Part shown: positions 7,441-32,087 of the stretch, piece after piece
Layout of the letters: every line of letters starts with the position of its first letter
Numbering within the stretch: the first letter of the stretch is position 1
Source: an uncultured Clostridia bacterium
Lineage (GTDB): Bacteria > Bacillota > Clostridia > TANB77 > CAG-508
DNA length: 32,391 nt
Assembly: GCA_944391155.1 (NCBI GenBank)
Contig: CALXSO010000116.1
Location: 1 to 32,391 of the forward strand
Reading direction: 5' to 3'
The notes under the pieces: generated by a model
The model's input: only the letters and a program-made list of their open reading frames with translations
Database searches by the model: none
Told to the model about the DNA's origin: nothing
Translations under genes and position numbers: made by a program

Positions 7441-7568
7441 GTTACTATTCGGTTACACTTCAGACTTCGTTTTTTAGAGTAATCTGAAAGGTTGATATAT
7501 AAGCATTTTTTGTCAAAAGCCAATAGATAAACTCAAGCTATGTTTTTAACAAAAATACTTATATATCA
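7441..7568. mobile_element. Truncated, rearranged copy of the hairpin MITE family (copy a)
   Basis: Starts GTTACTATTCG, followed by an R-arm-type sequence GTTACACTTCAGACTTCGTTTTTTAGAGTAATCTGAAAGGTTGATATATAAG, then the centre and the inner repeat ...AAAAATACTTATATATCAA. The far arm and terminus are missing, and there is no TSD. Confidence 0.55.
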
Positions 7569-7610
7569 AAAAAACTCACACAAAGAATAATAATTCTTTA
7601 TATGAGTTTT
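7566..7610 (-). terminator. Rho-independent terminator after rny
   Basis: The minus strand reads AAACTCATATAAAGAAT-TATT-ATTCTTTGTGTGAGTTT followed by TTTTT. It lies about 50 nt downstream of the rny stop. Confidence 0.7.
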
Positions 7611-9291: not shown

Positions 9292-9320
9292 ATTTTAACT
9301 TTATTATGGTTAACTGTCAA
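9292..9320 (-). promoter_or_regulatory. Sigma-A-type promoter for rny
   Basis: The minus strand reads TTGACA, a 17-nt spacer, then TAAAAT. The -35 hexamer overlaps the TGA stop (9317-9319) of the upstream ORF. Confidence 0.6.
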
Positions 9321-11137
9321 GAGTTTTCACGATTTTTATTTTGGGGGGATTTGGGGACGGTCCTTAAAATCCCTCCTAGGAGGGATTTTAAGGACCGTCC
9401 CCAAATCCCCCACAACAATCCATCATATTCTTCCGAAATTTGATTAAAATCACTATTCATTAATACACATTTTCCATTTTCTTTGATTATCCAATAATAA
9501 TTATCAAACATGACCAAATATAATGTTTGTATTATTCCTGTACCATTACTATCGAAAACAAAATATTTACAATCCATATCAGATGAATTATATTGTATTA
9601 ATATAATTTTACCATTCCTAACATCTTCAATTTCATATTTACCATTATATTTTACTCTATAACCCCAAGAATCATACCAACCACCACTTAAGCCATCTAA
9701 ACTTCTAAAAGGAATATATCCATCTGTAAGCACATTTATTTTAATTTCTGAATTCTCTATACTTCCCTGTATATACTCTATTTCTGATGTTTCTTCTCCA
9801 TCAGCTCTTTTTACTGTTACTCTACATTTTAAGTAACTATACATAAAATATTCATCATCTGATGCATATATTTCTTCATCTTCTAAAGGTTCTATCAACA
9901 TCAAATAATTTTCATTTTTATAATAATATCTTCCTAAATTTTTTTCGTCTTCAATATATATTTTTTCCTTTTCATATACATCTTTATCTTGTCTTTCAAA
10001 AATTATTTCCTCATTATTATCTGTACTTATAAATGCTCTTAATGAAAAATCAAAAGTTTCAATATAAGAATAAACTAATCCATTTTTATAATTATATTTA
10101 TTTATATTATTAAATATAGCTTCTTCTGAAAGATTATCAAATTTTGATAATATACTTGAATCCAAAGTTGCTTTATCTCCACTTTTAGAAATCACATAAT
10201 AATTATTTCCTTTTTTGGCAAGAGAAAAATAATATTTTTCATTATTTTTTTCTAAAGAATAAAAGTATGTTACTTTATCATACTCACAAGCAATTTTTTC
10301 TTCACCATCTTCGTTGATAAATCCATATTTTTTATCTTTTTCTACAGGAATATATAATTCACTTTTTGTATTTCCTTTTAATAAAGATATATCTTGAATC
10401 AATTGTGCAACTTGATTTTTTCTTTCATTATCCCACATTTTTGTTATAATAATAGCATAAATATTAAGTATTAAAAACATAACAACTACTAAAGCATGCA
10501 ATAAATAATGAATTATTACATCTATTACTTTATTAAAATTATTTGTTTTTTCTATATTTTTTTCAATATGTATATAAATAAATTGCATAATCACAGATAA
10601 TATAATCCATAATTCCCCATATACTAAAAATGAAATACTAAACAATTCAAGTATAGAAATTATAATTACAAATATATAAGAAAATATCTTTATTTTTGTA
10701 GGCTTATATTTTTTAATATAAATAAAATTTTTAATGGTTATCAATATTGGAATAACTACAAAAAGTATTATATCCAAATATTTAATAATTTCTAAATTAT
10801 CTTTCAGAATTGTAGATTGTAATGCAAAAGCAATACAAATAGCTCCAAAAACAAAATACCAAAAAGATAACTTTTTATTTTTTCTATTTTGTACAAATGA
10901 AACTATATTTGATATACCAAGTGCTAAATAAAATATTAATAATATTTTTTCAATATTTTTAATAAAACTTTCAACAATAAAGTTATCATAAATATATATA
11001 TATCCATCTGGTGATGATAATGAGTTATAGAATATATAATCAATCGAAAAATATAAAATACAAAATGCTATTATTCCTATTACATTAAATACTGATACAA
11101 TATAATTAGTGCTTTTATTCCACTTTTTTTCTATCAT
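9317..11137 (-). CDS. Polytopic membrane protein with a C-terminal WG/KWG-like repeat domain; the last ~30 codons read through the palindrome
   Basis: 606 aa. The N-terminal ~230 aa hold multiple hydrophobic helices. The C-terminal part carries repeats of the YGFINEDGEEKI...YDKV type. RBS AAGGGG lies before the ATG at 11137. The true 3' end is uncertain (see findings). Confidence 0.65.
   Translation of the reverse strand: MIEKKWNKSTNYIVSVFNVIGIIAFCILYFSIDYIFYNSLSSPDGYIYIYDNFIVESFIKNIEKILLIFYLALGISNIVSFVQNRKNKKLSFWYFVFGAICIAFALQSTILKDNLEIIKYLDIILFVVIPILITIKNFIYIKKYKPTKIKIFSYIFVIIISILELFSISFLVYGELWIILSVIMQFIYIHIEKNIEKTNNFNKVIDVIIHYLLHALVVVMFLILNIYAIIITKMWDNERKNQVAQLIQDISLLKGNTKSELYIPVEKDKKYGFINEDGEEKIACEYDKVTYFYSLEKNNEKYYFSLAKKGNNYYVISKSGDKATLDSSILSKFDNLSEEAIFNNINKYNYKNGLVYSYIETFDFSLRAFISTDNNEEIIFERQDKDVYEKEKIYIEDEKNLGRYYYKNENYLMLIEPLEDEEIYASDDEYFMYSYLKCRVTVKRADGEETSEIEYIQGSIENSEIKINVLTDGYIPFRSLDGLSGGWYDSWGYRVKYNGKYEIEDVRNGKIILIQYNSSDMDCKYFVFDSNGTGIIQTLYLVMFDNYYWIIKENGKCVLMNSDFNQISEEYDGLLWGIWGRSLKSLLGGILRTVPKSPQNKNRENS
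9344..9411. repeat. Perfect 68-bp palindrome (34-nt arms, no loop) centred on CCTAGG
   Basis: GGGGGATTTGGGGACGGTCCTTAAAATCCCTCCT | AGGAGGGATTTTAAGGACCGTCCCCAAATCCCCC. I checked every position p against position 18755-p and found no mismatch. It is much more GC-rich than its surroundings. Confidence 0.95.
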
Positions 11138-11175
11138 TATTTTATTCCCCTTTTATAAATCTTCTTTCATATATA

Positions 11176-11242
11176 ACAAGAAAAGTCACCTATAAAAAAC
11201 ATACATAAGCCTTGCTAATAAAGTCTTTCTATATTTATCACA
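11176..11242. repeat. Degenerate relic of the hairpin-element family (core-type fragment)
   Basis: AACAAGAAAAGTCACCTATAAAAAACATACATAAGCCTTGCTAATAAAGTCTTTCT aligns with 19013..19080 (AACAAGAAAGGTTACCTATAAAAAGACCCGCATGAGCCTTACCTATGTAGCTTTGCT). Confidence 0.4.
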
Positions 11243-12478: not shown

Positions 12479-12517
12479 TATTTTAAGATATTTTATTATA
12501 TAAGTAATTTATCAAAT

Positions 12518-12677
12518 GTTACTATTCAGCATATTATAAAAGTAATTCGTCTGAAAGGTTGATATAAAAGTATTTTTTATCAAAAACAATCATTAGGTCT
12601 ACCTACTAGTCTTTGGCAAAAAATACTTTTATATCAACCCTTCAGACTACTCTACAAAATGAAGTCTAACTAGTAAC
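12518..12677. mobile_element. Intact hairpin MITE (copy b) with a perfect 8-bp TSD
   Basis: Termini are GTTACTA...TAGTAAC. The inner inverted repeat is GTCTGAAAGGTTGATATAAAAGTATTTTTTATCAAA / TTTGGCAAAAAATACTTTTATATCAACCCTTCAGAC. It is flanked by TATCAAAT at 12510-12517 and again at 12678-12685. It has no coding capacity. Confidence 0.75.
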
Positions 12678-12737
12678 TATCAAATACTTTTTTAGATTCA
12701 TCTCTTAACTTAATGCATTGGAAACATCCATAAAACC

Positions 12738-16168: not shown

Positions 16169-16752
16169 CTAATAAACACCTTCCTTTTTATATTTTTTAT
16201 ATTAAAAATTAAAAACTTTTTTAACACTAAAATTAATTTTTTTAACTTTAGATTTTATGAGTACCTTTTTTATGACTTTATCATCTAAATATTTTTTCTT
16301 GTTGTATATAGATAAATCCAAATATGCAAAAAAACCAATTGCCCTATATATAGGACGAATTGGTTTTTTCCATATTTCGTGGTACCACCTATTTTTATCA
16401 GAGTCATCAAATACTAATTTTTATCTCTTTATATTAATAAATCACATTTTTATCTCTCTATATTAATAAATCTAATTTTATTTAATTAAATTTAGTTTAA
16501 TATAATCTAATTAATTTTATATAATTAGTATAATAAATTGTTTATTAATATTACTCTAACCTCATTAAAATGCTATAACGGGCTTTCCCGCTTTTTCCTA
16601 ATAACTTATGATTTCATAGCTTTCAAAAAAAGTTCTAAAAAAGTGAAATTTCCATTTAAGACAATTGGAAATGTTTTTCAGCTAATAACATTTCTCTCTT
16701 TTTCAATTTATCTTCTTAAATGTACTTTGCTTTTTTATTGAATTTATATATA
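16169..16752 (-). promoter_or_regulatory. T-box leader of pheST (terminator/antiterminator, T-box motif, probable UUC specifier); unusually long
   Basis: On the minus strand the T-box motif AAATAGGTGGTACCACGAAATATGG lies at 16369-16393. Terminator AACCAATTCGTCCTATATATAGGGCAATTGGTT plus T7 lies at about 16326-16368. Upstream, AGAGAG, a hairpin and GGAAATTTCA give a TTC codon at 16645-16647 followed by A. The 5' boundary is inferred from a candidate promoter and is uncertain. Confidence 0.6.
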
Positions 16753-16906: not shown

Positions 16907-17060
16907 GTTACAGTTCGAACTCAATTCTATAAAACAAACCAAAAAATCGATATATAAATATTTCGCCAAAGACCCCCATGAATACTCAAATTTAAGACCT
17001 TGATTAAACATTTTATATATCAACTTTCCTAATTGCTTAATTTTACACTTGACTAAAATT
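16907..17060. mobile_element. Degenerate copy of the hairpin MITE (copy d)
   Basis: GTTACAGTTCGAAC...TCGATATATAAATATTTCGCCAAAGACC...TTTTATATATCAAC...CTTGACTAAAATT is collinear with copies b and c but heavily mutated. It has no TSD. Confidence 0.4.
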
Positions 17061-17068
17061 ATAATTTT

Positions 17069-17563: not shown

Positions 17564-18211
17564 ATGAATCAAATCTTACAAATAATTCCAGATAATGAAA
17601 AAAATACTAAAAATGATATCAAAAAAAAGAAAAAAAATTTTATTTCTATCTTCATTTCATGCAGTATTCTTTTTTTTATAACAATTTTTTCTTATATACA
17701 CAATATTTTAAATATAAATAAAAATGAGAATTTCTCTGAAAAGTTGAATAACAACTATAATATTTTAAAACTATATTCCTCAAAAGATCCTTTTGATATT
17801 CCAATTGGAAATTCTGAAAATAAAATAATAGGTAACATAGATATTCCTATTTTAAATTTATCATACCCTTTCTTTTCGAGTTTAGACAATGAATCTCTAA
17901 GTATTTTTCCATGTAGATTTCATGGCAATCTACCTCCTGAAAACAGTAATTTATGTATTGCTGGACATAATTATGATAATGGAAAATTTTTTAGCAATTT
18001 ACATCTTATAAATATAGATGACACAATTAATATAGAAATTAATAATATTATATATCAATATTCTGTTTATAAAATATATGAAGTTAGTGAACTTGATCTT
18101 TCACCAATTTATACTTATGAAAAAAATAAAAAGCTACTCACTTTAGTAACTTGCAACAATATAAATAAAAAAAGATTGATTGTTAAAGCTTCCTATTCCA
18201 AAACTTTATAA
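17564..18211 (+). CDS. Sortase-family transpeptidase with an N-terminal membrane anchor
   Basis: ORF 17555..18211. The ATG at 17564 lies 5 nt after AGGTGA. TM helix is FISIFISCSILFFITIFSYI. Catalytic His context is LCIAGHNY and the Cys motif is LLTLVTC. Confidence 0.75.
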   Translation: MNQILQIIPDNEKNTKNDIKKKKKNFISIFISCSILFFITIFSYIHNILNINKNENFSEKLNNNYNILKLYSSKDPFDIPIGNSENKIIGNIDIPILNLSYPFFSSLDNESLSIFPCRFHGNLPPENSNLCIAGHNYDNGKFFSNLHLINIDDTINIEINNIIYQYSVYKIYEVSELDLSPIYTYEKNKKLLTLVTCNNINKKRLIVKASYSKTL

Positions 18212-18258
18212 CAATCAATTCTCTTAAAATAAAATTAAAATTTTTTAGCTTTCTATTT

Positions 18259-18419
18259 GTTACTATTCAGTATTGCATAAAAGTAATCAGTATTAAAGAT
18301 TGATATATAAGTATTTTTTTGTCAAAGACCAATAGGTAGACCTAAAGCTTGTTTTTGACAAAAAAGACTTATATATCAACATTTCAAAGTATTCTGCAAA
18401 ATGATGTCTGACTAGTAAC
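18259..18419. mobile_element. Intact hairpin MITE (copy c) with a perfect 8-bp TSD
   Basis: GTTACTATTCAG...AAAGATTGATATATAAGTATTTTTTTGTCAAAGAC...GTTTTTGACAAAAAAGACTTATATATCAACATTT...CTGACTAGTAAC. It is flanked by TTCTATTT at 18251-18258 and again at 18420-18427. It lies between convergent genes. Confidence 0.75.
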
Positions 18420-18503
18420 TTCTATTTAATATAGCAATGTGAAAATATAAAATACAGCTACCCTATTTTTGTAAGGCTTATTTTATTTTTTATAAAGAAC
18501 TAT

Positions 18504-18842
18504 TTAAAATTCTTTCCACATCCATTCTAAACTATTATCTACTCCTTGTTTTCCTCTCTTTTTTACCTCAACATCATCTACCCATAAATATGCAAAAAGA
18601 GTTATCGCAATAAATATAAAATCAACTGCCACACAACGCATTAGCATACCTCGTATTTCAGTAAATTCTTGTGATAATGATAAAAATTGAACTATATGCA
18701 CTACTATTAATATCAGATAAAAAAATAAAGGTAAAGCAACTATAAAGCTCTTTTTCAATTGTTGTGATAAAAAAATTAATAATAATGTTATCATTAACAT
18801 TAATAATAATGTAATCCAATTTGATATATCAAATATAAACAT
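18504..18842 (-). CDS. Small integral membrane protein (about 3 TM helices), unknown function
   Basis: 112 aa. A strong RBS, GAGGGGG, precedes the ATG at 18842. Hydrophobic helices run throughout. Confidence 0.55.
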   Translation of the reverse strand: MFIFDISNWITLLLMLMITLLLIFLSQQLKKSFIVALPLFFYLILIVVHIVQFLSLSQEFTEIRGMLMRCVAVDFIFIAITLFAYLWVDDVEVKKRGKQGVDNSLEWMWKEF

Positions 18843-19012
18843 TATTTTTCCCCCTCTTTTGTATAATTAAATAAAGTATAACATTAACATTTCTTTTTGA
18901 CAAGTTTTATTTTTAATTTTTGAAATTTAGTTTAATTCTAAACAACTGGTCAAAATAAATTGTATAGGAAAAATCGACTTTTATCTTGACCATATGTGAA
19001 TTTTTCCGTGTA

Positions 19013-19140
19013 CAACAAGAAAGGTTACCTATAAAAAGACCCGCATGAGCCTTACCTATGTAGCTTTGCTATCTTTCTTACAAAAATATTTATATACCAA
19101 AGTTTTAGAGTACTTCACAAATTCAAGTTTAAATTATAAC
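19013..19140. repeat. Internally deleted or degenerate copy of the hairpin-element family (copy e)
   Basis: The right half, ACAAAAATATTTATATACCAAAGTTTTAGAGTACTTCACAAATTCAAGTTTAAATTATAAC, aligns with the right arm of copy c. The left half, AACAAGAAAGGTTACCTATAAAAAGACCCGCATGAGCCTTACCTATGTAGCTTTGCT, recurs at 11176 and, inverted, at 21841. Confidence 0.45.
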
Positions 19141-19238
19141 AAATTTAAATTAATTCTAGATTTTATTTAAAAATAGAATTTATTCTTTTATAAATAAATT
19201 TAACATTCGACAAAAAAATACATTTTTTTAATTCTTTA

Positions 19239-19247
19239 TGATATAAT
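19239..19247 (+). promoter_or_regulatory. Extended -10 element (TGaTATAAT) upstream of the U32 gene
   Basis: TGATATAAT lies 30 nt upstream of the ATG at 19277. I see no good -35 at 17-nt spacing. Confidence 0.4.
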
Positions 19248-19276
19248 AAAACAAAAAAGAAAGGAACAAAATAATT

Positions 19277-21733
19277 ATGGTCGAATTACTTTCACCAGTT
19301 GGTGACTTCAATTGTTTAAAAGCTGCTGTTCAAAATGGAGCAGATAGTGTATATTTTGGTTCAGATACATTTAGTGCCAGAGCCTTTGCAACAAACTTTA
19401 GTCAAGACAATTTAAAAAAAGCCATTGAATATGCAAAAATAAGAGGTGTCAAAACAAATTTAACACTAAATACATTAATAAAAGATACTGAATTTAATGA
19501 AGCTTTCAATCTTGCACAAAAAGCTTATGAATTAGGTATTGATGCAATCATAGTTCAAGATTTAGGTCTAGCAATAACTCTAATAAAAAATTTTCCAGAT
19601 CTACCAATACACGCAAGTACTCAAATGACCGTCCACAATTTAAATGGTGCCTTAAAATTACAAGAACTTGGATTTAAAAGAATTGTACTAGCACGAGAAC
19701 TATCAATTAATGATATAGATTACATATGCAAAAACACCAAAGTAGAAATTGAAACATTTATTCATGGTGCATTATGCATTTCATATTCAGGTCAGTGTCT
19801 TTTTTCAAGTATGCTTGGAGGACGATCTGGAAATAGAGGAAAATGTGCCGGTCCATGCAGACTACCTTTTTCGCTATATGAAGAAGAAAAACTAATTGAT
19901 AGTGGCTATTTATTAAACACACGTGATTTATGTGGAATCGATTATATTCCTCAACTAATAGATTCTGGCGTAAAATGTTTCAAAATAGAAGGACGTATGA
20001 AAAGCCCAGAATATGTTGCCACAGTAACTAGAATATATAGAAAATACATTGACCTAGCATTATCTAAAAAAGAAGAATATACAATAAATGAAAATGACAA
20101 AAAAGACCTTCTTCAAGTATTTAATAGAGGAATGTCATCACCAGGACACTTAAGTAAAAATGGAAACCATTCATTAGTATTCAAAGAAAAACCAAACAAT
20201 ATGGGGCTATTTCTAGGAAAAATAGAAAAATACTTGCCAAAAAAAGGTTACATTACAATCAAATTAAATGAAAAAATATCAATAGGTGACACTATTTCCC
20301 TAGAAAACGAAACAACATCATACACAATATCAGAACTAATGAATACAAATTTTGAAAATATTACTCAAACACAAATTGGACAAACTGTCATAATTGGTAG
20401 GATAAAAGGTCATATAAAGTTAGGAAGTAAAATTTATAAAATGTCTTCAAAAGAACTTAATGAAACTGCACGTGAAAGTTTTTCAAAAGAATATAAAAAA
20501 ATAGGATTCAACTGTAATATAAATATAAAATTAAATAAACCAATAGAGGTTACTGTTACATCTGCTAGCAATTTAATTTTATATAAAAACTTAAAAATAA
20601 ACTACACTTCAACATTTATTCCTACTGTTGCTATAAATAAACCACTAGATAAAGAAACAGTAATTAATCAATTTAATAAAACTAACAACTATCCATTTTA
20701 CTTTAAAAACATCAAATTTGATTTGGATGACAATATATTTATACCAAAAATAAGTATTCTAAACGAAATCAGAAGAGTAATATTAGAAGAAATAGAAAAA
20801 TATGCAGAAAAAGAAATGAAGCGTACTTTTACTAAAAAATCTATAGAAAAATGTTTTAACACATCAAATATTAATAATACTTCCAATACCTACCATACTA
20901 CTAATAGTTCAAATGAAACTCCAAAGATATCAGTACTACTAAATAATTTAAACTTAAATTTTGACTATTCTAACTTAAGAAATTTTGATAATATATACAT
21001 ACCATTAAAATTCTTTTCAAACAAAAAATATGAAAACATATTAAAAACTTTAAGCAACAAATTTGCATTATATATTTATATGCCTACAATTATACAATCA
21101 AATTATAAAAATATATTCTTAGCAAATAGTGAAACAGCAATACAAAAATTTAAAATTAGAGGATTTATAATTTCAAACATATGTAACTTAAAACTCTTAG
21201 AAGAAGTTATAAATAAAAACCCTAACCTTAAAATAATTACAAACTATACATTTAATGTCTTTAACACTAATACTGTAAATGAATTAAAAAAAATGAAGGT
21301 ATTAAGATACACTATATCTCCAGAATTGGACAAACATACAATAGCCAAACTTTGTACTTCGTCAAATTTAGAAAAAGAATTAATAGCATATGGAAAAATA
21401 CCACTAATAAACATGAACTATTGTCTACTTGGTAAAACAGATAAATGTTATCCAACTTGTACCATGAAGTGTCAAAACGGTCATACATTTAAACTGAAAG
21501 ATAGATATAATATGGACTTTACAGTTGTACCAGATAATATCCAAACTGTAACAACAATCTATAATAGCAAAATAATTTCTATTCCTATAAAAAAATTCAA
21601 TATAGATGTAGCTAGAATAGATATTTTAAATGAAAAAATAGAAACAATTAACAAAATTGTTCAAAATGTAAGAAATAACAAAAAATTTGAAGGAAAAAAT
21701 TATACAAATGGAAACTTAAATAGAGAAATCTAA
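19277..21733 (+). CDS. Peptidase U32 family protein, long form with a C-terminal extension
   Basis: 818 aa. The N-terminal ELLSPVGDFNCLKAAVQNGADSVYFG and the U32 signature region ETFIHGALCISYSGQCLFSSMLGGRSGNRGKCAGPCR match the family. RBS is GAAAGGAA. Confidence 0.85.
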   Translation: MVELLSPVGDFNCLKAAVQNGADSVYFGSDTFSARAFATNFSQDNLKKAIEYAKIRGVKTNLTLNTLIKDTEFNEAFNLAQKAYELGIDAIIVQDLGLAITLIKNFPDLPIHASTQMTVHNLNGALKLQELGFKRIVLARELSINDIDYICKNTKVEIETFIHGALCISYSGQCLFSSMLGGRSGNRGKCAGPCRLPFSLYEEEKLIDSGYLLNTRDLCGIDYIPQLIDSGVKCFKIEGRMKSPEYVATVTRIYRKYIDLALSKKEEYTINENDKKDLLQVFNRGMSSPGHLSKNGNHSLVFKEKPNNMGLFLGKIEKYLPKKGYITIKLNEKISIGDTISLENETTSYTISELMNTNFENITQTQIGQTVIIGRIKGHIKLGSKIYKMSSKELNETARESFSKEYKKIGFNCNINIKLNKPIEVTVTSASNLILYKNLKINYTSTFIPTVAINKPLDKETVINQFNKTNNYPFYFKNIKFDLDDNIFIPKISILNEIRRVILEEIEKYAEKEMKRTFTKKSIEKCFNTSNINNTSNTYHTTNSSNETPKISVLLNNLNLNFDYSNLRNFDNIYIPLKFFSNKKYENILKTLSNKFALYIYMPTIIQSNYKNIFLANSETAIQKFKIRGFIISNICNLKLLEEVINKNPNLKIITNYTFNVFNTNTVNELKKMKVLRYTISPELDKHTIAKLCTSSNLEKELIAYGKIPLINMNYCLLGKTDKCYPTCTMKCQNGHTFKLKDRYNMDFTVVPDNIQTVTTIYNSKIISIPIKKFNIDVARIDILNEKIETINKIVQNVRNNKKFEGKNYTNGNLNREI

Positions 21734-21840
21734 ATTAAAATCATAACATTTACAAGTAATTAAAATTTTAAGAAACATTTTCTTAATTAAATCTTAAAAA
21801 TTTTGTTATCTTATCTGATAAAAAACACAAAATTTATTAT

Positions 21841-21914
21841 ACAAGAAATGTAACAAAGCTTACATAAGTAAAGCTCACGTGGGTCTTTTATTAGTAAACT
21901 TTCTTATTATTTTT
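21841..21914. repeat. Inverted relic of the hairpin-element core
   Basis: ACAAGAAATGTAACAAAGCTTACATAAGTAAAGCTCACGTGGGTCTTTTATTAGTAAACTTTCTTATT aligns with the reverse complement of 19013..19082. Confidence 0.45.
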
Positions 21915-21995
21915 TTATTAGTACCCTTTCTTATTACATTTTTATTGGTAAACTTTCTTATTAAATTTTTGTTGGTATCATTTCTTTGCATACAA
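21888..21995. repeat. Tandem repeat, 4 x 27 bp, derived from the end of the relic
   Basis: Units start at 21888, 21915, 21942 and 21969: TTATTAGTAAACTTTCTTATTATTTTT / TTATTAGTACCCTTTCTTATTACATTT / TTATTGGTAAACTTTCTTATTAAATTT / TTGTTGGTATCATTTCTTTGCATACAA. Confidence 0.85.
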
Positions 21996-21996
21996 G

Positions 21997-22046
21997 AAAA
22001 AAAGAGAATTATTTATCACTTATATCATTAAATATTCTCTTTTTTT
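21997..22046. terminator. Possible bidirectional terminator between the convergent U32 and RNHCP genes
   Basis: AAAAAAAGAGAAT (21997-22009) pairs with ATTCTCTTTTTTT (22034-22046). The A/T runs give U-tracts on both strands, but the loop is long at 24 nt. Confidence 0.4.
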
Positions 22047-22058
22047 CATTTCAACATA

Positions 22059-22376
22059 TCATAACTGTTTACTACTTAGTTCAATTATTAAATCCATATT
22101 ATCATCTTTGGCAGCCTTATTTTTTCTAATTTTGCCACATTTATTGCACCTATATATAATTACATATCCTTTCTTGCTATCTATCTCCAAACTAACTGGT
22201 ACTAAGTCACCATGACATTCTTCTAGTCTATCACCAGGATTAACATCTACATGTTTAGAATGTAAACAATATGGACAATGATCTCTGCAAGAATAACCAA
22301 GCTTAGGAACTTTCATACCACAATTATCACATATAAATTCTTCATCAATTTCTTTAAATTTCTTATTTTTAATCAT
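22059..22376 (-). CDS. RNHCP domain zinc-ribbon protein
   Basis: 105 aa. FICDNCGMKVP...CRDHCPYCLHSKHVD...YRCNKCGK is the Cys-rich RNHCP-type pattern. Confidence 0.7.
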   Translation of the reverse strand: MIKNKKFKEIDEEFICDNCGMKVPKLGYSCRDHCPYCLHSKHVDVNPGDRLEECHGDLVPVSLEIDSKKGYVIIYRCNKCGKIRKNKAAKDDNMDLIIELSSKQL

Positions 22377-22525
22377 TTTCTATTACCTACTACATTATTT
22401 TTTATCTTTTTATTATCTTCTATATCATTTTTAATCTTTTTTCATTACCTAATACATATTCCTATATTAACATCAAAATACATATATAAATGTAAACCAT
22501 CTAAGAATAACAACAAATATTCTTA

Positions 22526-24172
22526 CTAATTAACATCAAAAGCTCCTCCACCTAGAAATTCTTTTAAAAGAGAATTTTTAGGAACATAATCATTTGGAAC
22601 TTCCTTAAAATATTTTAACATATTAATCAATCTCTGAGCTTCTGCATATTCTGTATCCTTATTAGTAATTTCTTCTAATAAAGGCATAACCACTGGCTTT
22701 AATGCACATAACTCATATATTAAAGAAGTGTTAAATATGAAATTTGCCTCTTCCTGAAATGGAAATATATTTTTTTCTTCTCCCTCATTTACTTTATTCC
22801 ACGTAGAAATAGTATGTTTTGCATTATATCCCCTAAATTGATTATCTCTTACTATTCTTCTAATAAGCCTTGTATCTGTTGTAGAAATCCTATTAAATCT
22901 GTCTAAATTAAGCACTGTTAAAGCACTTATATAAACTTTATACTTTTGCTCAGCCGGAATTTTACTTGTTAATTTATCATTTAAACAGTGTATTCCTTCA
23001 ATTACTAAAATTTCATCTTCTTTCAACTTTGTCTTTTTTCCATTATATCTCTTTGTTCCCTGCAAAAAATCAAACTCTGGCATTACTATTTCTTCACCGT
23101 TTAATAGTTTTGTCAAATGATCATTAAACAATTCCAAATCAATTGCCTCTATACATTCAAAATCATATTCTCCATTTTTATCACGTGGTGTATCTTTTCT
23201 TTCGACAAAATAATTATCAACAGATATTGTAACAGGCTTTAATTTATTTAATCTAAGTTGTATTCCTAATCTTTGTGCAAATGTTGTTTTTCCTGAAGAA
23301 GAAGGACCTGCAATTAAAACCATCTTTATATTTTTATTTTTTGCAATATTATCAGCTATATTTGCGATTTTCTTTTCATGTAATGCCTCTGCAAGTAGAA
23401 TTACTTCTTGAATTCTATCATCTTCAATTGCATCATTTAATTTATAAACTCTATCAACATTTAATATTCTATGAATATCTTCATATTCATCAATAGCCCA
23501 AGACAATTTTTTATTTTTTATAAATTTAGCTATATGATTTGGATTTTTATGGCTTGGATATCTTATTATGAAACCATCACTATACTTACTAAGTTCAAAT
23601 CTATTAATACAACCTGTTCTATTGGCAAGTGTTCCATAACAATAATTAAAATAGTCTTCACAATAATACATATATATTTTTTCATTATTTTCCAAATCTA
23701 ATTGCAATCTACCTTTTGAAGTATCATTAATTGCAAAAAAGTCTTGTGCTTCCTTTTTTGTCATAACTACTTGTTCTATTGGCAAATTTTCTTTAACTAT
23801 TTTTTGCATTTCTTTTTGTAAATTTTCTACCATTTCTTGTGAGACTTCTTCATTATCCTGTGTATCATAAAACATTGAATTTGATAGTTGATAGTCCACA
23901 ATTAATTTTTTTTCTGGATAAAGTTTTTCAAATGCTTTTCCTAAAATATAAGTCAATGTTCTTGTGTATACTTTCATTCCCTCTTTTGATGATATATCTA
24001 TTAATTCTAATACTCCATCTTGTTCTATTACGTATTCTAAATTAACATATTCATTATTAAATGTTGCTGCAACAACAGTATATTTATTATTATCTATTAT
24101 ATCCTTAAAAACTTCCGATATTTTTGAACTTTTTTCAATTTCTATTATTTCACCTTTATATTGTATCTTCAT
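22526..24172 (-). CDS. Nucleoside (uridine/cytidine-type) kinase with an N-terminal extension
   Basis: ORF 22526..24226. The ATG at 24172 follows GGAGGA. P-loop is LIAGPSSSGKTTFAQRL and the uridine-kinase-like core is ILVIEGIH. The ~280-aa N-terminal extension begins MKIQYKGEIIEIEK. Confidence 0.7.
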   Translation of the reverse strand: MKIQYKGEIIEIEKSSKISEVFKDIIDNNKYTVVAATFNNEYVNLEYVIEQDGVLELIDISSKEGMKVYTRTLTYILGKAFEKLYPEKKLIVDYQLSNSMFYDTQDNEEVSQEMVENLQKEMQKIVKENLPIEQVVMTKKEAQDFFAINDTSKGRLQLDLENNEKIYMYYCEDYFNYCYGTLANRTGCINRFELSKYSDGFIIRYPSHKNPNHIAKFIKNKKLSWAIDEYEDIHRILNVDRVYKLNDAIEDDRIQEVILLAEALHEKKIANIADNIAKNKNIKMVLIAGPSSSGKTTFAQRLGIQLRLNKLKPVTISVDNYFVERKDTPRDKNGEYDFECIEAIDLELFNDHLTKLLNGEEIVMPEFDFLQGTKRYNGKKTKLKEDEILVIEGIHCLNDKLTSKIPAEQKYKVYISALTVLNLDRFNRISTTDTRLIRRIVRDNQFRGYNAKHTISTWNKVNEGEEKNIFPFQEEANFIFNTSLIYELCALKPVVMPLLEEITNKDTEYAEAQRLINMLKYFKEVPNDYVPKNSLLKEFLGGGAFDVN

Positions 24173-24969: not shown

Positions 24970-25443
24970 CTATATAAGTAAATAATTCTCTTTTTCTATT
25001 ATTTGAAAAATTTCTCTAATTTCATTTTTATCATTTATTGTTCTTAATAATTGTTTTTTATCTACTATAATTATATTATTTTCAAATTTTTTAAGCTCAA
25101 TCCTCCTTTTAGGATGTTTATCAAATGCATAAATTTCTCCATCATCATTTTGTATATATATCTCTTCTTCTGGTTTATTATTATACAATTGATTTTTTGA
25201 TGTATCATACAAGATTCCAAACTGTGATAAACTTTCAATACTCTTAAGATTTAATTTCTTCATAATTACTTCCAATTTATCATTCAATTCTTGAGATGAA
25301 ACACATTGTTGTATTACAAAGTTCTGCATTACCAATTTTTTTGAATAATCTGAATTATATGTATTAACATCTTTCAGAAATTTCATATCATCTTCTAATA
25401 TTTCAATATATCCATATTCATTAGTCTTTTCTCCTGAAGACAA
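24970..25443 (-). CDS. Hypothetical protein downstream of, and overlapping, the HD gene; start uncertain
   Basis: The frame opens after a TGA at about 25470. The ORF-track start is a TTG at 25443, overlapping the HD gene by 23 nt. The first ATG is at 25386. No convincing RBS, and I recognise no motif. Confidence 0.4.
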   Translation of the reverse strand: MSSGEKTNEYGYIEILEDDMKFLKDVNTYNSDYSKKLVMQNFVIQQCVSSQELNDKLEVIMKKLNLKSIESLSQFGILYDTSKNQLYNNKPEEEIYIQNDDGEIYAFDKHPKRRIELKKFENNIIIVDKKQLLRTINDKNEIREIFQIIEKENYLLI

Positions 25444-26533
25444 TAATCCGAGAATATAATGCTTTAGTCATTGTATTATTTGGTAAACAATAACTTGCTA
25501 ATTCTTTCAATCTTTCATTTTTTGTTTTGCTATATACTTCTAAAATTCCTTTTAAAAATTCTATATCATTAAACTTCATATATTCTTCTAAATCTATTTC
25601 TTCTGGTCTTTTATCTATATTACCTACCAAATAACTCTTTAATTTAAAGTCTTCACTATTTTTTAATAATTCAGTTGCAAATTCTTTAAAAATATGCTCA
25701 TATAATTTTTCATCAAATGAATAATATAGAAATTTATAATTATTATATCTACATTCTAAAAATTTTTCTATATGCCCCAACATATTTTCTGGAAATACAG
25801 GTACCAAATTATTTTTTTCTTTAATTTTTTTAATTTCAATACTATCAAATAGTTCAGTAACTATTGTTGACATATCTATGCTCTCTCTAACTGAAGCATA
25901 ATTATCTCTGGGTAAAAAATCAGCTCTATCTACGTCAAATTGACCTTCAAACAAACAATTTAATCCTAAAAAGTTCTTTCTTTCCACTTCATTCATTAAA
26001 TCTGTTAAATTAGGATATATTTTATCCAACGTAGTTTTTAATTCTTTATCTTCATTAATTATTCTCTTTCCTAATTCTTCATGGAATCCTTTTGGCCAAT
26101 TACAGACAATTTCCATAGTATGAGAAAAAGGTCCATGTCCAATATCATGCAACAAAGCTCTTATCAGTTCAGCTAATAAATATTTTTCATAATGATTTTT
26201 TTCTATTAAACATTTTATTTCTTCTTTTTTAGAAAGATTAACTAATAAATCTAAAGTTCTTTGATATGTTCCCTTACTATGGTCACCTCTTGTATGCATA
26301 AACTTACTACTTGAATAAAATTTTGTTCCCAATTGAAATATTCTATTTATTCTTTTAAATGCTTTCGTTTGTAATACTTTATCTATTTCAGAAGTATAAT
26401 AAACAATCCCCTGTTTCATATCTTCTTTGTTTTCAGCTGTCAAAATTGGGTCAAAATCTGTATACAAATACACTTCTGGCTTTTTAAATATTTTTTTAAA
26501 AAATTCTTCATAATCATTATAAGTTAATTTCAT
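25421..26533 (-). CDS. HD-domain phosphohydrolase of the SAMHD1/dGTPase-like (COG1078-type) class
   Basis: ORF 25421..26545. The ATG at 26533 follows GGAGAG. Motifs are FQLGTKF...HTRGDHSKGT, LLHDIGHGPFSH and FDVDRADFLPRDNY. Confidence 0.75.
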   Translation of the reverse strand: MKLTYNDYEEFFKKIFKKPEVYLYTDFDPILTAENKEDMKQGIVYYTSEIDKVLQTKAFKRINRIFQLGTKFYSSSKFMHTRGDHSKGTYQRTLDLLVNLSKKEEIKCLIEKNHYEKYLLAELIRALLHDIGHGPFSHTMEIVCNWPKGFHEELGKRIINEDKELKTTLDKIYPNLTDLMNEVERKNFLGLNCLFEGQFDVDRADFLPRDNYASVRESIDMSTIVTELFDSIEIKKIKEKNNLVPVFPENMLGHIEKFLECRYNNYKFLYYSFDEKLYEHIFKEFATELLKNSEDFKLKSYLVGNIDKRPEEIDLEEYMKFNDIEFLKGILEVYSKTKNERLKELASYCLPNNTMTKALYSRIIVFRRKD

Positions 26534-26748
26534 TTTTCTCTCCATAATAAAAGGTCTGAATTAAAGTATCTTTCTTTAAAAACTATATTAGTCTTTATTC
26601 TTTTTTTTATCAAAATTTTTATTAAGATAATTTTTAATACTTTACTATTCAAACCTTTATCTCTAGTTTCTCTTATTTCATTGTAATTGATGTAGCTTTG
26701 CTACCTTGTTATTACTATTTATCTAAACAACTATTTATTAATATAAAT

Positions 26749-28131
26749 TTAAAATTCTATTTTATTTGAAATCCATTTTTCTAATTCATCAATATCTAAT
26801 CTTATTTGTTCCATTGTATCCCTATCACGAACAGTTACTGTATTATCTTCTAATGTATCAAAATCTATTGTTATACAATATGGTGTTCCTATTTCATCTT
26901 GTCTTCTATACCTCTTTCCAATACTTCCTGCCACATCATAATCACACATAAATTTCTTAGAAAGTCTAGTATATACTTCTTCAGCTTTATCTGATAATTT
27001 TTTTGATAATGGTAATACTGCCACTTTATAAGGTGATAAAGCTGGATGTAAATGTAATACTACTCTTGTATCTCCATCTGATAAATTTTCTTCCTCATAG
27101 CTATTACATAAAAATGCAAGTAGTACTCTATCTGCCCCTAATGAAGGTTCTATTACATATGGAATATATTTTTCATTTGTTTCTGGATCTAGATATGATA
27201 AATCCTGTTTAGAATGATTCATATGTTGTGATAAATCATAATCTGTTCTATCTGCAATTCCCCATAATTCTCCCCATCCAAATGGAAATTTAAATTCTAT
27301 ATCTGTTGTTGCTTTACTATAGAATACTAATTCTTCTGGTGAATGATCTCTTAGACGTATATTTTCTTTCTTCATACCTAAACTAATTAACCAATTTTCG
27401 CAATAATCTTTCCAATATTTATGCCATTCTAAATCAGTTCCTGGCTTACAGAAAAATTCTAATTCCATTTGTTCAAATTCACGTGTTCTAAATATAAAAT
27501 TTCCAGGTGTTATTTCATTTCTAAAAGCCTTTCCAATTTGAGCAATTCCCATTGGCATTTTCTTCCTTGATGTTCTTAATACATTTTTAAAATCCACAAA
27601 TATACCTTGTGCTGTTTCAGGTCTTAAATATATTTCTGCGGTCTTATCTTCTGTAACTCCTTGAAATGTTTTAAACATTAAATTAAATTTTCTAATATCT
27701 GTAAAATTTGTTTTCCCACAAGATGGACATGGTATTTTATTTTTTTCTATAAAATCCATCAATTCTTTATCACTCATACCATCTGCTATCATATCTCTGC
27801 CTTGATCATGTGCCCATTCCTCAATTAGTTTGTCTGCTCTATGTCTTGTTTTACATTCTTTACAATCTATTAATGGATCTGAAAATCCTCCAACATGACC
27901 TGATGCTACCCAAGTTTCAGGATTCATTAATATCGCTGCATCTAGTCCTACAATATTAGGCTGTTCTTGTATGAATTTTTTTCTCCAAGCTGTTTTAATA
28001 TTATTTTTTAACTCATTTCCTAAAGGTCCATAATCCCAAGTATTTGCTAAACCTCCATAAATTTCTGAACCAGGATATATATATCCTCTATTCTTGCATA
28101 AATTTACAATTGTTTCCATAGACTCTATCAT
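26749..28131 (-). CDS. glyQS: Glycine--tRNA ligase (alpha2 GlyQS type)
   Basis: 460 aa. [29 protein letters not shown], class II motifs ([12 protein letters not shown]) and the anticodon-binding C-terminus match GlyQS. RBS is AAGGAGGA. Confidence 0.95.
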
Positions 28132-28429
28132 AAAAATTCCTCCTTTTTAATGTTCTTTTATATTTTTAGAAGTTTTTATAACGCCAAACTTCTCTGAATA
28201 CAAAAAAACTTCCATACCTAGCTTATAGCTAGGGACGAAAGTTTATATTCCGCGTTTCCACCCTAATTCCTAAAACATATTTCATGTTATGTTTTAGACA
28301 CCTTAATTCATATATTACTCAGAAGCTCCCCATACTTTTTTATTACAAGTATTCCACCATCACTTGCTCTCTATTAATAAATTTACTAAGTATTTTTTCT
28401 TCTTCACTGTAATTTAATTATTTAATTTA
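28132..28429 (-). promoter_or_regulatory. T-box leader of glyQS
   Basis: On the minus strand, AGAGAGCAAGTGATGGTGGAA supplies the Stem I AG bulge and distal loop. The T-box motif GGAATTAGGGTGGAAACGCGG lies at 28250-28270. Terminator ACTTTCGTCCCTAGCTATAAGCTAGGTATGGAAGT plus T7 lies at 28202-28242. Confidence 0.8.
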
Positions 28430-28504
28430 TGGCAGGGGTAGAAGGACTCGAACCCTCACAGGCGGTTTTGGAGACCGATGTGCTACCATTAACACTATAC
28501 CCCT
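28430..28504 (-). tRNA. trnW: tRNA-Trp (anticodon CCA), with the 3' CCA encoded
   Basis: Reverse complement AGGGGTATAGTGTTAATGGTAGCACATCGGTCTCCAAAACCGCCTGTGAGGGTTCGAGTCCTTCTACCCCTGCCA. Acceptor stem is AGGGGTA/TACCCCT, anticodon loop CTCCAAA and T-loop GGTTCGAGTCC. It closely resembles Bacillus tRNA-Trp. There is one U-C mismatch at the top of the anticodon stem. Confidence 0.85.
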
Positions 28505-28528
28505 AAATTGCTTTTTCAAACACTTATT

Positions 28529-28557
28529 ATCTTAGCATACTTTAGTTATTTTGGCAA
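28529..28557 (-). promoter_or_regulatory. Sigma-A-type promoter for tRNA-Trp, and possibly the downstream glyQS leader
   Basis: The minus strand reads TTGCCA, a 17-nt spacer, then TAAGAT. It ends about 25 nt upstream of the tRNA 5' end. Confidence 0.5.
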
Positions 28558-28702
28558 GTATTTTTTTAGAATTTTTAGTCTTCTTTTTTTGCAAAATTTT
28601 CATTGCCAATTTTTTTTGGTTATTTCCAGTAACTCTTGTACTTGTCTCCTGTTATGTTATTTTTTTAACAGTATTCATTTGTATCAAAACTCGTATAATA
28701 GC

Positions 28703-28729
28703 AAAACCCCCAATCCATACTTTTGGGGG
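28703..28729 (-). terminator. Rho-independent terminator after the 146-aa ORF
   Basis: The minus strand reads CCCCCAA-AAGTATGGA-TTGGGGG followed by TTTTGCTATT. Confidence 0.65.
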
Positions 28730-28744
28730 TATCTTATCTCCTAT

Positions 28745-29182
28745 TTAGGAGATAGCTTTTTGGAAGATTTTTTGCCGCGTTTTCTTTCTAATAGTTAAAT
28801 TCTTTTTATCTATTAGATACTCTATATTATCAGGCAGTGATTCTTTTACATCAACTTCTGGGAGTAAATCCTTGTAGAAAGTTGATGAATTAGTAATCCG
28901 GATTATCTCCTTACTTCTAAAAAATAATTTTTCTCTCTTAAAAAATCGCTTATTTTTTTCAGGTTCTCGCATTACATTCATTATTTTTTTAAAAACTTTT
29001 TTCTTCAGCTTTTTAGGTTCAGACTCAATTCTGAGCTCCCACTCGTAAAATTCATATAAGTCATCCACTGCTTTTGATTGCCAAAACTCTAAATAGTCCT
29101 GATATTTCCGGCATACAATTGTTGCAAAATTTTGTGCCACTTCTTCTAAAGTGGTACCTGAAAAAATTACTTCTTCACTCAT
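28745..29182 (-). CDS. Hypothetical protein (about 146 aa), visibly more GC-rich than its neighbours
   Basis: ORF 28745..29236. I prefer the ATG at 29182, 6 nt after AGGAGG (AGGAGGATGAGCATG). I recognise no motif. The C-terminal half is Lys/Arg-rich. Confidence 0.5.
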   Translation of the reverse strand: MSEEVIFSGTTLEEVAQNFATIVCRKYQDYLEFWQSKAVDDLYEFYEWELRIESEPKKLKKKVFKKIMNVMREPEKNKRFFKREKLFFRSKEIIRITNSSTFYKDLLPEVDVKESLPDNIEYLIDKKNLTIRKKTRQKIFQKAIS

Positions 29183-29251
29183 GCTCATCCTCCTATCTAA
29201 ATGTATGTTTTCTTGTAGCCTGAAATAATTTATCATATTTACATAACATTG

Positions 29252-29815
29252 TCAAATAATCTCTTGTTTAAGCTTTTTATTAAGTTTACTATATATTGGT
29301 TTCATTTTTAATTCATTAGTAATTTCTATTGCTTTGTCAATATCAATCCATTCTACAGCACTATTTTCATCTTCTTTTACTTTCAAAGTTTCATTTTCAT
29401 TAGCTTGTAATAAAAAACAACAATCCAAATGCAAATGAGATGGTATAAATTTTTCTCTTTTTATATGACTATCTACAGTAAGTATTTGAATTCCAAATAT
29501 TCCATTACTTATTACTTTTAAATTTTTCAATCCAGTCTCTTCTTGTGCTTCTTTCAAAGCTACATGCAACAAATTACTATCTCCATCTGCATGCCCACCA
29601 GTCCAAGCCCATGACTTATAAATATTATGATAAATCATTAATACTTTTGATTTTTCTTTATTTACAATCCAGTTTGATGCAGTAAAATGACACATTTTAT
29701 TTTCTCTTGTTAATACATCACTGAAAGTATTCATATATTCTATCATCATTTCTTTGTCGTTTTTTTCCTGTTCATTGTATGGTACATAATTTTCAATTTG
29801 TTCTTTTAAATTCAT
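29252..29815 (-). CDS. Nudix hydrolase
   Basis: ORF 29252..29857. The ATG at 29815 follows AAGGAGA. Nudix box is GGHADGDSNLLHVALKEAQEETGL. Confidence 0.75.
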   Translation of the reverse strand: MNLKEQIENYVPYNEQEKNDKEMMIEYMNTFSDVLTRENKMCHFTASNWIVNKEKSKVLMIYHNIYKSWAWTGGHADGDSNLLHVALKEAQEETGLKNLKVISNGIFGIQILTVDSHIKREKFIPSHLHLDCCFLLQANENETLKVKEDENSAVEWIDIDKAIEITNELKMKPIYSKLNKKLKQEII

Positions 29816-30105
29816 TTCATTTCTCCTTATCTTATATACAACCAACTCTATAAGCATAAAAACATTATTTTAGTTTATGAGTATTTACTAGTTTATAAAT
29901 TTAGTTAAGTTCATATGTTCTTTGTATTATTGGCTATATTACAAATTTTCTTTGCTACTGTTTAATAAATTATTTCGTAATGTATCTCTTGTTTTATGCT
30001 TTTAAAAAAATTAATCCACCCCTGTTATAGCTACACTATATTATAAAATTACATTTTCTCAATCTAATTAACCATATATATATTGAAAGATTTTAATTAC
30101 TACCA

Positions 30106-30744
30106 TTATGATAAACTTTTTAGTATATTCTCAATAATCTCATCAAAATCAACTTTCGAAAAATCTGTTGTATCAACGAGTATTTCATTATTATTTATTT
30201 TAAACTCTTTTGATTTCATAGCTGCTTGTTCAAAATTTTTAAAGTCATCAAATACTCCATTTGATACTAGTCCCATATGTCTTTCACTTGAATATTCCCT
30301 TTCTAAAAATCTTTTATGTAATATCTGTAAATCTCCTTCAAATCTAATTGTAATACTTTTATAATTATATTTATTTAATAGTTCCTTTATAATAGAAACA
30401 GATTCTTTTGCAAAATTACTTTCAACTATTACTGATTTTCCTACTTTTAGCTGTTCTTCTATTATATAATAAAAAATAGAATAACTACTTGCTCCTAGTT
30501 TTCTCTTTGCTTCATAAGCTAAATTATCACAACTAAAAGAATCATATAAAATTTTTTTAATTTCATCTTTACTAAAAAAAGGTATTTCTAATAGCTTTGA
30601 AATTTTTTTGCCATAACTAGTCTTTCCGGCAGCCAATTCTCCCGTTACAATTATAATGCTTTTTGAATTTTTGCATTTTGTTAATTCAATATTTAAATCT
30701 CTTCTGTATTCAGAATTATTTTTATCTTTTAGAATTTCATTCAT
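30106..30744 (-). CDS. P-loop ATPase / small-molecule or nucleotide kinase-like protein
   Basis: ORF 30106..30759. The ATG at 30744 follows GAGAGGT. Walker A is IIIVTGELAAGKTS and a Walker B-like stretch is SVIVESNF. Confidence 0.6.
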   Translation of the reverse strand: MNEILKDKNNSEYRRDLNIELTKCKNSKSIIIVTGELAAGKTSYGKKISKLLEIPFFSKDEIKKILYDSFSCDNLAYEAKRKLGASSYSIFYYIIEEQLKVGKSVIVESNFAKESVSIIKELLNKYNYKSITIRFEGDLQILHKRFLEREYSSERHMGLVSNGVFDDFKNFEQAAMKSKEFKINNNEILVDTTDFSKVDFDEIIENILKSLS

Positions 30745-30874
30745 TTTTATACCTCTCATCTTTATATCTATTTTATATACATATTTTAAACCTTTTTTAG
30801 TCTTTTACATATATTTTTTGACTAATTTTTTCAAGCCTTTACTAGTTCAAATTTCCTAAAAGCTAAATATTTCT

Positions 30875-30964
30875 TTATGCAAATTTTATCAATTTTATAT
30901 TTTCTTTTTTAGCTCCTACTACAATAACTTCATCCATATCAACCATAATAGATTTTTTATACAT
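30875..30964 (-). pseudogene. 29-codon remnant resembling the N-terminus of an NT5C/YorS-type HAD 5'(3')-deoxyribonucleotidase
   Basis: GGAGG lies 9 nt upstream of the ATG at 30964. The translation MYKKSIMVDMDEVIVVGAKKENIKLIKFA* carries the HAD motif I context (VDMDEV) and then stops. Confidence 0.4.
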
Positions 30965-30983
30965 TTTTATTTTCCTCCACTTT

Positions 30984-31394
30984 TCACATTTTATGTTTTT
31001 CTTCATAATTCCAAATACTTAAATGTCCTTTTGCTTTTATTGGATTATCTAATACTTGAATATTTTCTAAGATCCAAGCATATCTACCTTCTTTATATTC
31101 ACCACAAATATATTCTTGATAATTATTTCTTTTCATATTTTCTATATATTCTTTAGTCATATAAATACAATCTACTAAATTACATTTACAGATAATATTT
31201 CCAAAGTTTAATGAATTATCTTTTATTAAATTCATAAGTTCTTTATTATTTTTCCATTCTTTTGGTATATGAGTGCTACTTGCATGTATATATAGTTCGC
31301 CTCTATATGATGTTTTCCAACTTCTTGTTTCTACTTTCTTTCTCTCTTCTTTAATTAATGTAGCATATGGTTCTGTTAAACTTAATACTTTCAT
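30984..31394 (-). CDS. ASCH (PUA-like) domain protein
   Basis: 136 aa. MKVLSLTEPYATLIKEERKKVETRSWKTSYRGELYIHAS is the typical ASCH N-terminus. RBS is GGAGGA. Confidence 0.75.
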   Translation of the reverse strand: MKVLSLTEPYATLIKEERKKVETRSWKTSYRGELYIHASSTHIPKEWKNNKELMNLIKDNSLNFGNIICKCNLVDCIYMTKEYIENMKRNNYQEYICGEYKEGRYAWILENIQVLDNPIKAKGHLSIWNYEEKHKM

Positions 31395-31436
31395 TGTTCC
31401 TCCAATTTTTATTTCAATTTTTCTTTTAATTTGCCT

Positions 31437-31802
31437 CTAACTATTTTTTATTTCTCTATCTATCCATGCCATTATTATATTTACAATATAATCTTTTTGT
31501 TCTTCATTCAGTTTTATTCCTTTTTGTATTTTATGCCATTTGTATAAGCAACCTCTACAACAAGTCGCAGTAGCATGTTGTGCTATAAATACAGGATGTC
31601 CTCTCATTGGTGTTTGTTTTCCGTCATTTGATATATTTTCTGGTGCTAATCTTTTATTTATAAAGTCATATGCATGTTCTCTAATTTTGTCCATTCCTTT
31701 TTCTTTTATATAATCTTTGTCTTTCTGGTTTAAATGAAATTTTCTTCTAAAACTTGATTTTGATAAACTATTCAGCATATTTTCTATTCTCATATTTTGC
31801 AT
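31437..31802 (-). CDS. DUF4186 family protein
   Basis: ORF 31437..31811. The ATG at 31802 lies 5 nt after AGGTGA. The conserved stretch is MRGHPVFIAQHATATCCRGCLYKWH. Confidence 0.7.
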   Translation of the reverse strand: MQNMRIENMLNSLSKSSFRRKFHLNQKDKDYIKEKGMDKIREHAYDFINKRLAPENISNDGKQTPMRGHPVFIAQHATATCCRGCLYKWHKIQKGIKLNEEQKDYIVNIIMAWIDREIKNS

Positions 31803-31890
31803 TTTAATCACCTGTTTTTCTTCTCAAACGTCATATTTTTTAATTTTTCAATATATTCTTTTATATTAACATCATTTATATCTTCAGGCT

Positions 31891-32079: not shown

Positions 32080-32087
32080 TTTTGCAC

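Follow-up and report, generated by a model that had tools for sequence, protein, structure and literature searches.

The spacer between pheT and a GH3 gene in this genome holds a hairpin-forming sequence of about 160 bp that recurs in other spacers nearby, which raises the question of whether it is a mobile element or a structured sequence kept for a function of its own. The stretch of DNA that was analysed, 32,391 nucleotides long and referred to here as the window, contains pheS and pheT behind a T-box leader, as well as genes for RNase Y, a sortase, a U32 peptidase, SspH, SpoIIAB and sigma-F neighbours, a gene content that indicates a Clostridia-like spore former of low G+C, known from metagenomes alone. 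The repeat is very probably a non-autonomous, non-coding bacterial MITE of about 160 bp; the family is real and previously undescribed, and the kind of element that it represents is well known. Same-species contigs were obtained via exact protein look-ups and carried the sequence a further 10 kb beyond the start of the window; contigs of this species recur in the ENA samples ERZ24773363, ERZ16268098 and ERZ28615895. The earlier note had supposed the family to be abundant genome-wide; in the about 42 kb of this species that were covered, there are three intact copies (B, C and D), one truncated copy (A) and two to three relics (Table 1). The T-box leader upstream of pheS (16351–16747, minus strand) was matched in two pieces, of 45.7 and 22 bits against an Rfam gathering score of 93, and looks like a diverged or unusually long one in an AT-rich genome.

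Intact copies and their duplicated target sites

The earlier note had described two intact copies of about 160 bp with the termini GTTACTA...TAGTAAC, each flanked by a perfect 8-bp direct repeat. Direct reading of the sequence confirmed the exact positions of both copies as well as the repeats around them, with the junctions tatcaaat/GTTACTATTCAG...CTAACTAGTAAC/tatcaaat for copy B and ttctattt/GTTACTATTCAG...CTGACTAGTAAC/ttctattt for copy C, and in both cases the direct repeat ends at exactly 8 bp. The background frequency of an identical 8-mer on both sides at the spacing of the element is 2.4e-4 per position in the window. The third intact copy, D, lies outside the window and was found in three same-species samples, with the junctions aatttaat/GTTACTAGTCAT...TTGAATAGTAAC/aatttaat. 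Perfect 8-bp flanking duplications are thus present in 3/3 intact copies, and the three 8-mers, TATCAAAT, TTCTATTT and AATTTAAT, are mutually unrelated, which identifies them as duplicated target DNA rather than conserved sequence of the element; the converse possibility, raised in the earlier note, of their being part of a longer conserved sequence of the element does not hold. Duplicated flanks of 8 bp are the standard footprint of staggered-cut DDE-type integration, and the initial attribution of these copies to DDE-type transposition gains support from the third, different duplication of copy D. All three duplications have T as their last base, which may reflect a weak target preference.

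Intact elements measure 158–161 bp, and the window has about 25% G+C. The termini GTTACTA...TAGTAAC match perfectly in B, C and D. They form a terminal inverted repeat that is short, with 7 perfect bp, and extends imperfectly to about 12 bp (GTTACTAnTyAG). Since the outer 36 nt of the two element ends are only 57–63% complementary, the element has a definable orientation, with a left end and a right end, and both end types are conserved between copies. Further inside, inner arms of 34–39 nt, built around GGTTGATATATAAGTATTTTTTTGTCAAAGAC, enclose a loop of about 21 nt, and these arms are the best-conserved part of the element among the five copies compared. The arm motif GTTGATATAWAAGTATTTTTT has six matches in the window at three or fewer mismatches, corresponding to three inverted pairs, whereas 0.08 matches are expected from shuffles and 0/100 shuffles reached six. 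As single strands, copies B and C fold into hairpins of -26.4 kcal/mol (z = -7.5) and -26.1 kcal/mol (z = -5.8), respectively, and none of 200 shuffles folded as well as B or C.

That the family reflects fortuitous low-complexity similarity, or an artefact of assembly within AT-rich spacers, has a negligible probability. A composition of about 25% G+C does inflate weak matches, and the candidate at 26550–26653 may be one of them, but copies B and C recur at 99–100% identity in all same-species assemblies covering their sites, including independent assemblies of several samples, the E-values go down to 1e-42 to 1e-45 and the shuffle controls are clean. For copies A, B, C and D this explanation is refuted.

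Bacterial MITEs are defined as AT-rich sequences of 50–600 bp that carry terminal inverted repeats, are flanked by target-site duplications of the length made by the parent IS and are mobilised in trans (PMC6382973). The repeat described here matches this definition in its size and AT-richness, its terminal inverted repeats, its duplication of fixed length and variable sequence, and its dispersed copies in both orientations. It also lacks coding capacity, as had been claimed at the outset: the sole ORF of at least 20 aa that overlaps copy B encodes 25 aa from a TTG start. Likewise, the gene tables and a Pfam scan revealed no transposase domain among the window genes, in agreement with the earlier statement that the window holds no transposase. 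We propose that a transposase encoded elsewhere in the genome would recognise the short GTTACTA terminal repeats, and perhaps subterminal sequence, and would cut the target with an 8-bp stagger, after which gap repair would duplicate 8 bp of AT-rich target on each side of the element. Mobilisation would then occur in trans by a putative DDE-type enzyme.

Table 1. Copies, relics, duplications and spacers of the 160-bp repeat family (window coordinates unless a contig is named)
Feature	Position	Strand	Evidence or remark
Intact copy B, 160 bp	12518–12677	+	direct sequence reading; nhmmer E = 7.8e-45; termini GTTACTA/TAGTAAC
Inner arms of copy B	12549–12587 and 12609–12647		39 nt, 90% complementary; loop ~21 nt
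Left target-site duplication of B, TATCAAAT	12510–12517	.	direct reading
Right target-site duplication of B, TATCAAAT	12678–12685	.	direct reading
Intact copy C, 161 bp	18259–18419	+	direct sequence reading; end orientation as B; central loop in the opposite orientation to that of B, D and A
Left target-site duplication of C, TTCTATTT	18251–18258	.	direct reading
Right target-site duplication of C, TTCTATTT	18420–18427	.	direct reading
Intact copy D (three same-species samples)	L023 19538–19695; L024 18121–18278; L026 10651–10808		perfect 8-bp duplication AATTTAAT
Truncated copy A, inverted	7441–7570	-	nhmmer E = 7.2e-20
Decayed full-length relic, ~158 bp	16907–17064	-	E = 3e-5; orthologous site shared with sister species
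Decayed right-half relic, end ...TTATAAC	19069–19140	+	E = 1e-5; shared with the orthologous site of L015/L016
Weak possible relic	26550–26653	.	blastn only, E = 2e-4
Site B spacer, pheT to GH3			367 bp in window species; 163–183 bp in sister species
Site C spacer, sortase to 112-aa gene			292 bp in window species; 70 bp in sister species

Decayed copies and the age of the insertions

The earlier note had also pointed to three further copies or relics within 12 kb; those recovered in the window are copy A, two relics and a weak candidate at 26550–26653, the last of which was not recovered by nhmmer. Copy A retains both inner arms and a right-end-type terminus, GTTACACTTCAGAC, from position 7452; it has lost its far end and shows no duplication of its flanks. 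Directly adjoining this right-end-type terminus is an additional left-end-type one of 11 nt, GTTACTATTCG (7441–7451), which may be the leftover of a nested or adjacent second insertion. The relic at 16907–17064 begins with GTTACAGTTCGAAC and retains CGATATATAAATA and TTTTATATATCAAC. All copies are intergenic, occur in both orientations and are dispersed in unrelated spacers, with one co-directional, one convergent and one divergent gene pair among their contexts. Copy B lies between the pheT stop codon and a TTGACA-17-TATAAA site upstream of the GH3 gene, which is where a tolerated insertion would be expected.

Comparison with related genomes suggests a relative order of events. Same-species samples are 98.4–99.6% identical to the window; in the sister species, PheS is 95% identical, the DNA is about 85% identical and gene order is retained. 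No element is present at B and C in the orthologous spacers of the sister species, which are the shorter ones (Table 1); these spacers are too diverged to align across the two insertion points and thus offer no base-exact empty site. At site D, synteny is lost in the nearest relatives found, with no exact empty site there. One contig with a PheS 98% identical to that of the window was considered as a same-species empty site and was rejected, as it belongs to the sister species. Two of the relics, in turn, have counterparts in the sister species: L013 carries GTTACAGTTTAGACTTAATTTTGTAGAGG at the position orthologous to GTTACAGTTCGAACTCAATTCTATAAAAC of the window, and L015 and L016 carry ATCAACCTTTCGGACTACTCTACAAAATTTAGTCTGAATAGCGAC at the site orthologous to the relic at 19069–19140. 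The presence of these relics at orthologous sites indicates that the family is older than the split from the sister species (~85% identity); copies B, C and D were inserted after it. According to the proposed scenario, the family would have resided in the lineage before the two species separated, and renewed insertion would later have given rise to B, C and D.

The intact copies B, C and D share only 79–83% pairwise identity, and all six halves of their duplications are perfect. By our own estimate, which assumes that the copies diverged from one source after insertion with about 10% change per copy, 16 unchanged flanking bases in all three copies would be about 0.6% likely. The simplest reading of the low identity combined with the intact duplications is that B, C and D derive from source copies that had already diverged, which would imply a family larger and more varied than the copies observed.

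Several other repeats and length differences were noted in the same loci. A second, G+C-rich repeat family with the core GGGATTT(N)GGGACG occurs in the window (9344–9411), in L013 (13416), L014 (7050), L015 (13230), L029 (15181) and in L032/L033 (8340). The window copy is a perfect 34+34-nt palindrome that enters the 3' end of ORF 9317–11137, just upstream of rny, and the copy in the sister species directly follows the stop codon of pheT; the repeat may represent a mobile palindrome that is REP-like or associated with terminators. Within the PRK–RNHCP spacer, about 147 bp lie between two copies of this repeat in L033, L029 and L030 and are lacking in L032. The 147-bp length polymorphism between L032 and L033 was rejected as an empty site of the 160-bp element, since it belongs to this different repeat.

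The contigs L029, L030 and L032 are mosaic, being 98.4% identical to window positions 26729–32391 and only 71–78% identical over 17908–24172, and they lack the two genes at 24970–26545 as well as the 112-aa gene. Their switch point adjoins the weak relic candidate at 26550–26653 and could mark either a boundary of recombination or a chimeric assembly. A 37-nt repeat (…ACAACAAGAAAGGTTACCTATAAAAA) has two intergenic copies with 81% identity (11162–11198 and 19001–19037), one of which adjoins the relic at 19069–19140. At least three tandem 27-nt units (TTTTATTAGTAAACTTTCTTATTATTT-like) are located at 21886–21986, just downstream of the U32 peptidase gene, and the spacer at 22337–22570 is about 28 nt shorter in the window than in the same-species contig L031. 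Finally, the spacer between the SpoIID and M23-peptidase genes varies within the species (233, 210 and 178 bp in L023 12407–12641, L024 11018–11229 and L025 6591–6770, respectively), a polymorphism that is not due to the 160-bp element.

The hairpin, its loop and possible functions

The loop of the hairpin is found in both orientations. That of copy C, CAATAGGTAGACCTAAAGCTTG, matches the reverse complement of the copy D loop, AAGCTTTAGTCTACCTATCG, at 19/20 positions, compared with 11 in the same orientation. Copies B, D and A have the loop in one orientation, whereas copy C and a copy from a chicken-gut Clostridia MAG (described below) have it in the other, the asymmetric ends of the element staying fixed. 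No flip of the loop was seen between samples at the same locus. The arms show a related pattern: in copy B, a T>A change in one arm is accompanied by the matching A>T change in the other, and comparison of five sequences revealed two compensatory base pairs along with several broken consensus pairs. Taken together, the two-way loop orientation and the matched arm changes of copy B suggest that the arms are probably kept similar by exchange. Both observations fit a process, which we infer, in which the two arms of a quasi-palindrome exchange sequence or the template is switched from one arm to the other, and selection on the hairpin could be an alternative cause. Loop inversion is the sole unusual feature of the family. 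It is unlikely, yet worth stating, that a hairpin or cruciform arises in vivo as a transient or regular form of the element, either during transposition by an undescribed transposase of uncultured Clostridia or in a maintained structural role in DNA or RNA; the element would in that case not be just a passive derivative of an ordinary IS by deletion.

The hairpin could also be read as a structured RNA or cis-regulatory element (a terminator, an insulator, an RNase III site or an sRNA module) that is kept for its function and next to which the flanking repeats are incidental. Such a reading would agree with the strong and conserved central hairpin, with the conservation of the inner arms across the five copies, with the compensatory changes at two base pairs and with the intergenic position of every copy. 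We nevertheless give it a small probability, because flanking repeats that are a perfect 8 bp in all three copies and differ between them cannot be put down to coincidence. The copies lie in unrelated contexts, namely, co-directional, convergent and divergent gene pairs, and many of the consensus pairs are broken, as judged from only five sequences.

The earlier note had suggested that the copies may act as transcriptional terminators or insulators; neither B nor C has a terminator-like site, i.e., a G+C-rich stem with a T-run 3' of it, and promoter-like sites at the copies are no commoner than in shuffles. The lack of a terminator-like T-run leaves the suggestion of a terminator or insulator without support. 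One promoter-like site, GTAACA-16-TATAAT across the left end of copy B (12522–12495, minus strand), was set aside as an unremarkable 10/12 match. Only a tRNA matched Rfam at gathering thresholds, and the search at E <= 1 returned only sub-threshold microRNA hairpin families for the element, which were rejected as matches of shape and composition. The sole Rfam match, mir-548/Made1, resembles the element in being an AT-rich, near-perfect hairpin of about 80 nt, but it scored 46.6 bits against a gathering score of 90, and on both strands, which reflects shape and composition rather than homology. The mir-548 family itself derives from a human MITE. For an element that is very probably a MITE, a secondary, co-opted effect on transcripts, e.g., in RNA processing, is possible.

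A palindrome moved by an HUH/Y1 single-strand transposase of the IS200/IS605 or REP/RAYT kind is very improbable, although a hairpin dominates the element and its flip/flop loop would suit a hairpin intermediate. IS608 inserts 3' of TTAC, a tetranucleotide that is contained in the GTTAC terminus of the element. To our knowledge, elements of the IS200/IS605 and REP/RAYT kinds have no terminal inverted repeats and produce no target duplication, whereas here terminal inverted repeats and 8-bp duplications of variable sequence are both present in 3/3 intact copies; an IS200/IS605-type palindrome or a REP was rejected on these grounds. Moreover, no TnpA- or RAYT-like gene was found in the fetched loci.

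Known elements of this kind and the candidate parent

Among known bacterial MITEs, the Correia elements (CREE) of Neisseria and RUP of Streptococcus pneumoniae are hairpin-forming intergenic sequences of 100–160 bp that can be co-transcribed with their neighbours. Their target duplication is TA, and their terminal repeats are longer, at about 26 bp in Correia. The family described here, in contrast, has an 8-bp duplication, a 7-bp perfect terminal repeat and unrelated hosts, and shares nothing with them in sequence; a MITE of the Correia/RUP type was rejected since the duplications are 8 bp and not TA. A closer parallel in kind is provided by MITEAba12 of Acinetobacter, which is likewise small, AT-rich and non-coding, has terminal inverted repeats and a target duplication of fixed length and variable sequence, inserts into AT-rich intergenic targets and is represented by copies ranging from intact ones with duplications to decayed ones without them (PMC6382973). 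The two families have no sequence similarity and differ in duplication length (8 bp here and 9 bp in MITEAba12) and in size (160 and 113 bp), the inner hairpin being much longer in the present family; furthermore, the parent of MITEAba12, ISAba12, is known (PMC6382973). No outward promoter is evident in the element described here.

The length of the duplication narrows the range of possible parents. IS6/IS26 ends start with GG, have G at position 7 and are associated with 8-bp duplications, and the ends of the 'long' clostridial IS6-like group (ISCpe7, ISCbo1) mostly have G7, with G2 at the left end and G1 at the right end (PMC6807381). This 'long' group resembles the present family in its 8-bp duplication and in belonging to the same bacterial class (PMC6807381). 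A MITE derived from IS6/IS26 was rejected because of the termini, which read GTTACTA and thus have A at position 7, although an 8-bp duplication would be of the right length. IS66/ISBst12, ISL3, IS256 and IS1595 also make 8-bp duplications. By duplication length alone, the candidate parents are the IS6-like 'long' clostridial elements, IS66/ISBst12, ISL3, IS256 and IS1595.

We found no transposase in the approximately 480 kb of fetched loci, much of which is redundant between samples, and no autonomous element with matching termini in the window, in the fetched loci or in the plasmid, phage and viral collections. No hit at E <= 0.01 was obtained in a blastn search of plasmids and phages, where a cutoff of E <= 10 yielded only noise, and the two-arm pattern had no match in viral contigs. 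In the genome and metagenome collections, the exact two-arm pattern, a strict one of 30 bases that is probably too narrow for diverged relatives, matched one locus each, which is the same site of a chicken-gut Clostridia MAG. This site holds a near-complete copy of the element (L001/L002), and the family thus reaches at least one other species. A literature search with sequence strings of the element matched only unrelated primers and constructs.

The description of this family leaves the current understanding of transposition unchanged. Its use lies in providing a defined repeat family, with a consensus, termini and a duplication length, for the annotation of an uncultured lineage of low-G+C gut Clostridia, where AT-rich repeats of such kind interrupt metagenome assemblies and are liable to be misread as regulatory RNAs. 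The shared relics and the lineage-specific intact copies provide a relative timeline of the activity of the family, and the flip/flop loop represents a small case of a natural quasi-palindrome that shows inversion between its arms. Finally, the family predicts that the lineage contains an autonomous transposase element with GTTACTA ends that makes 8-bp duplications.
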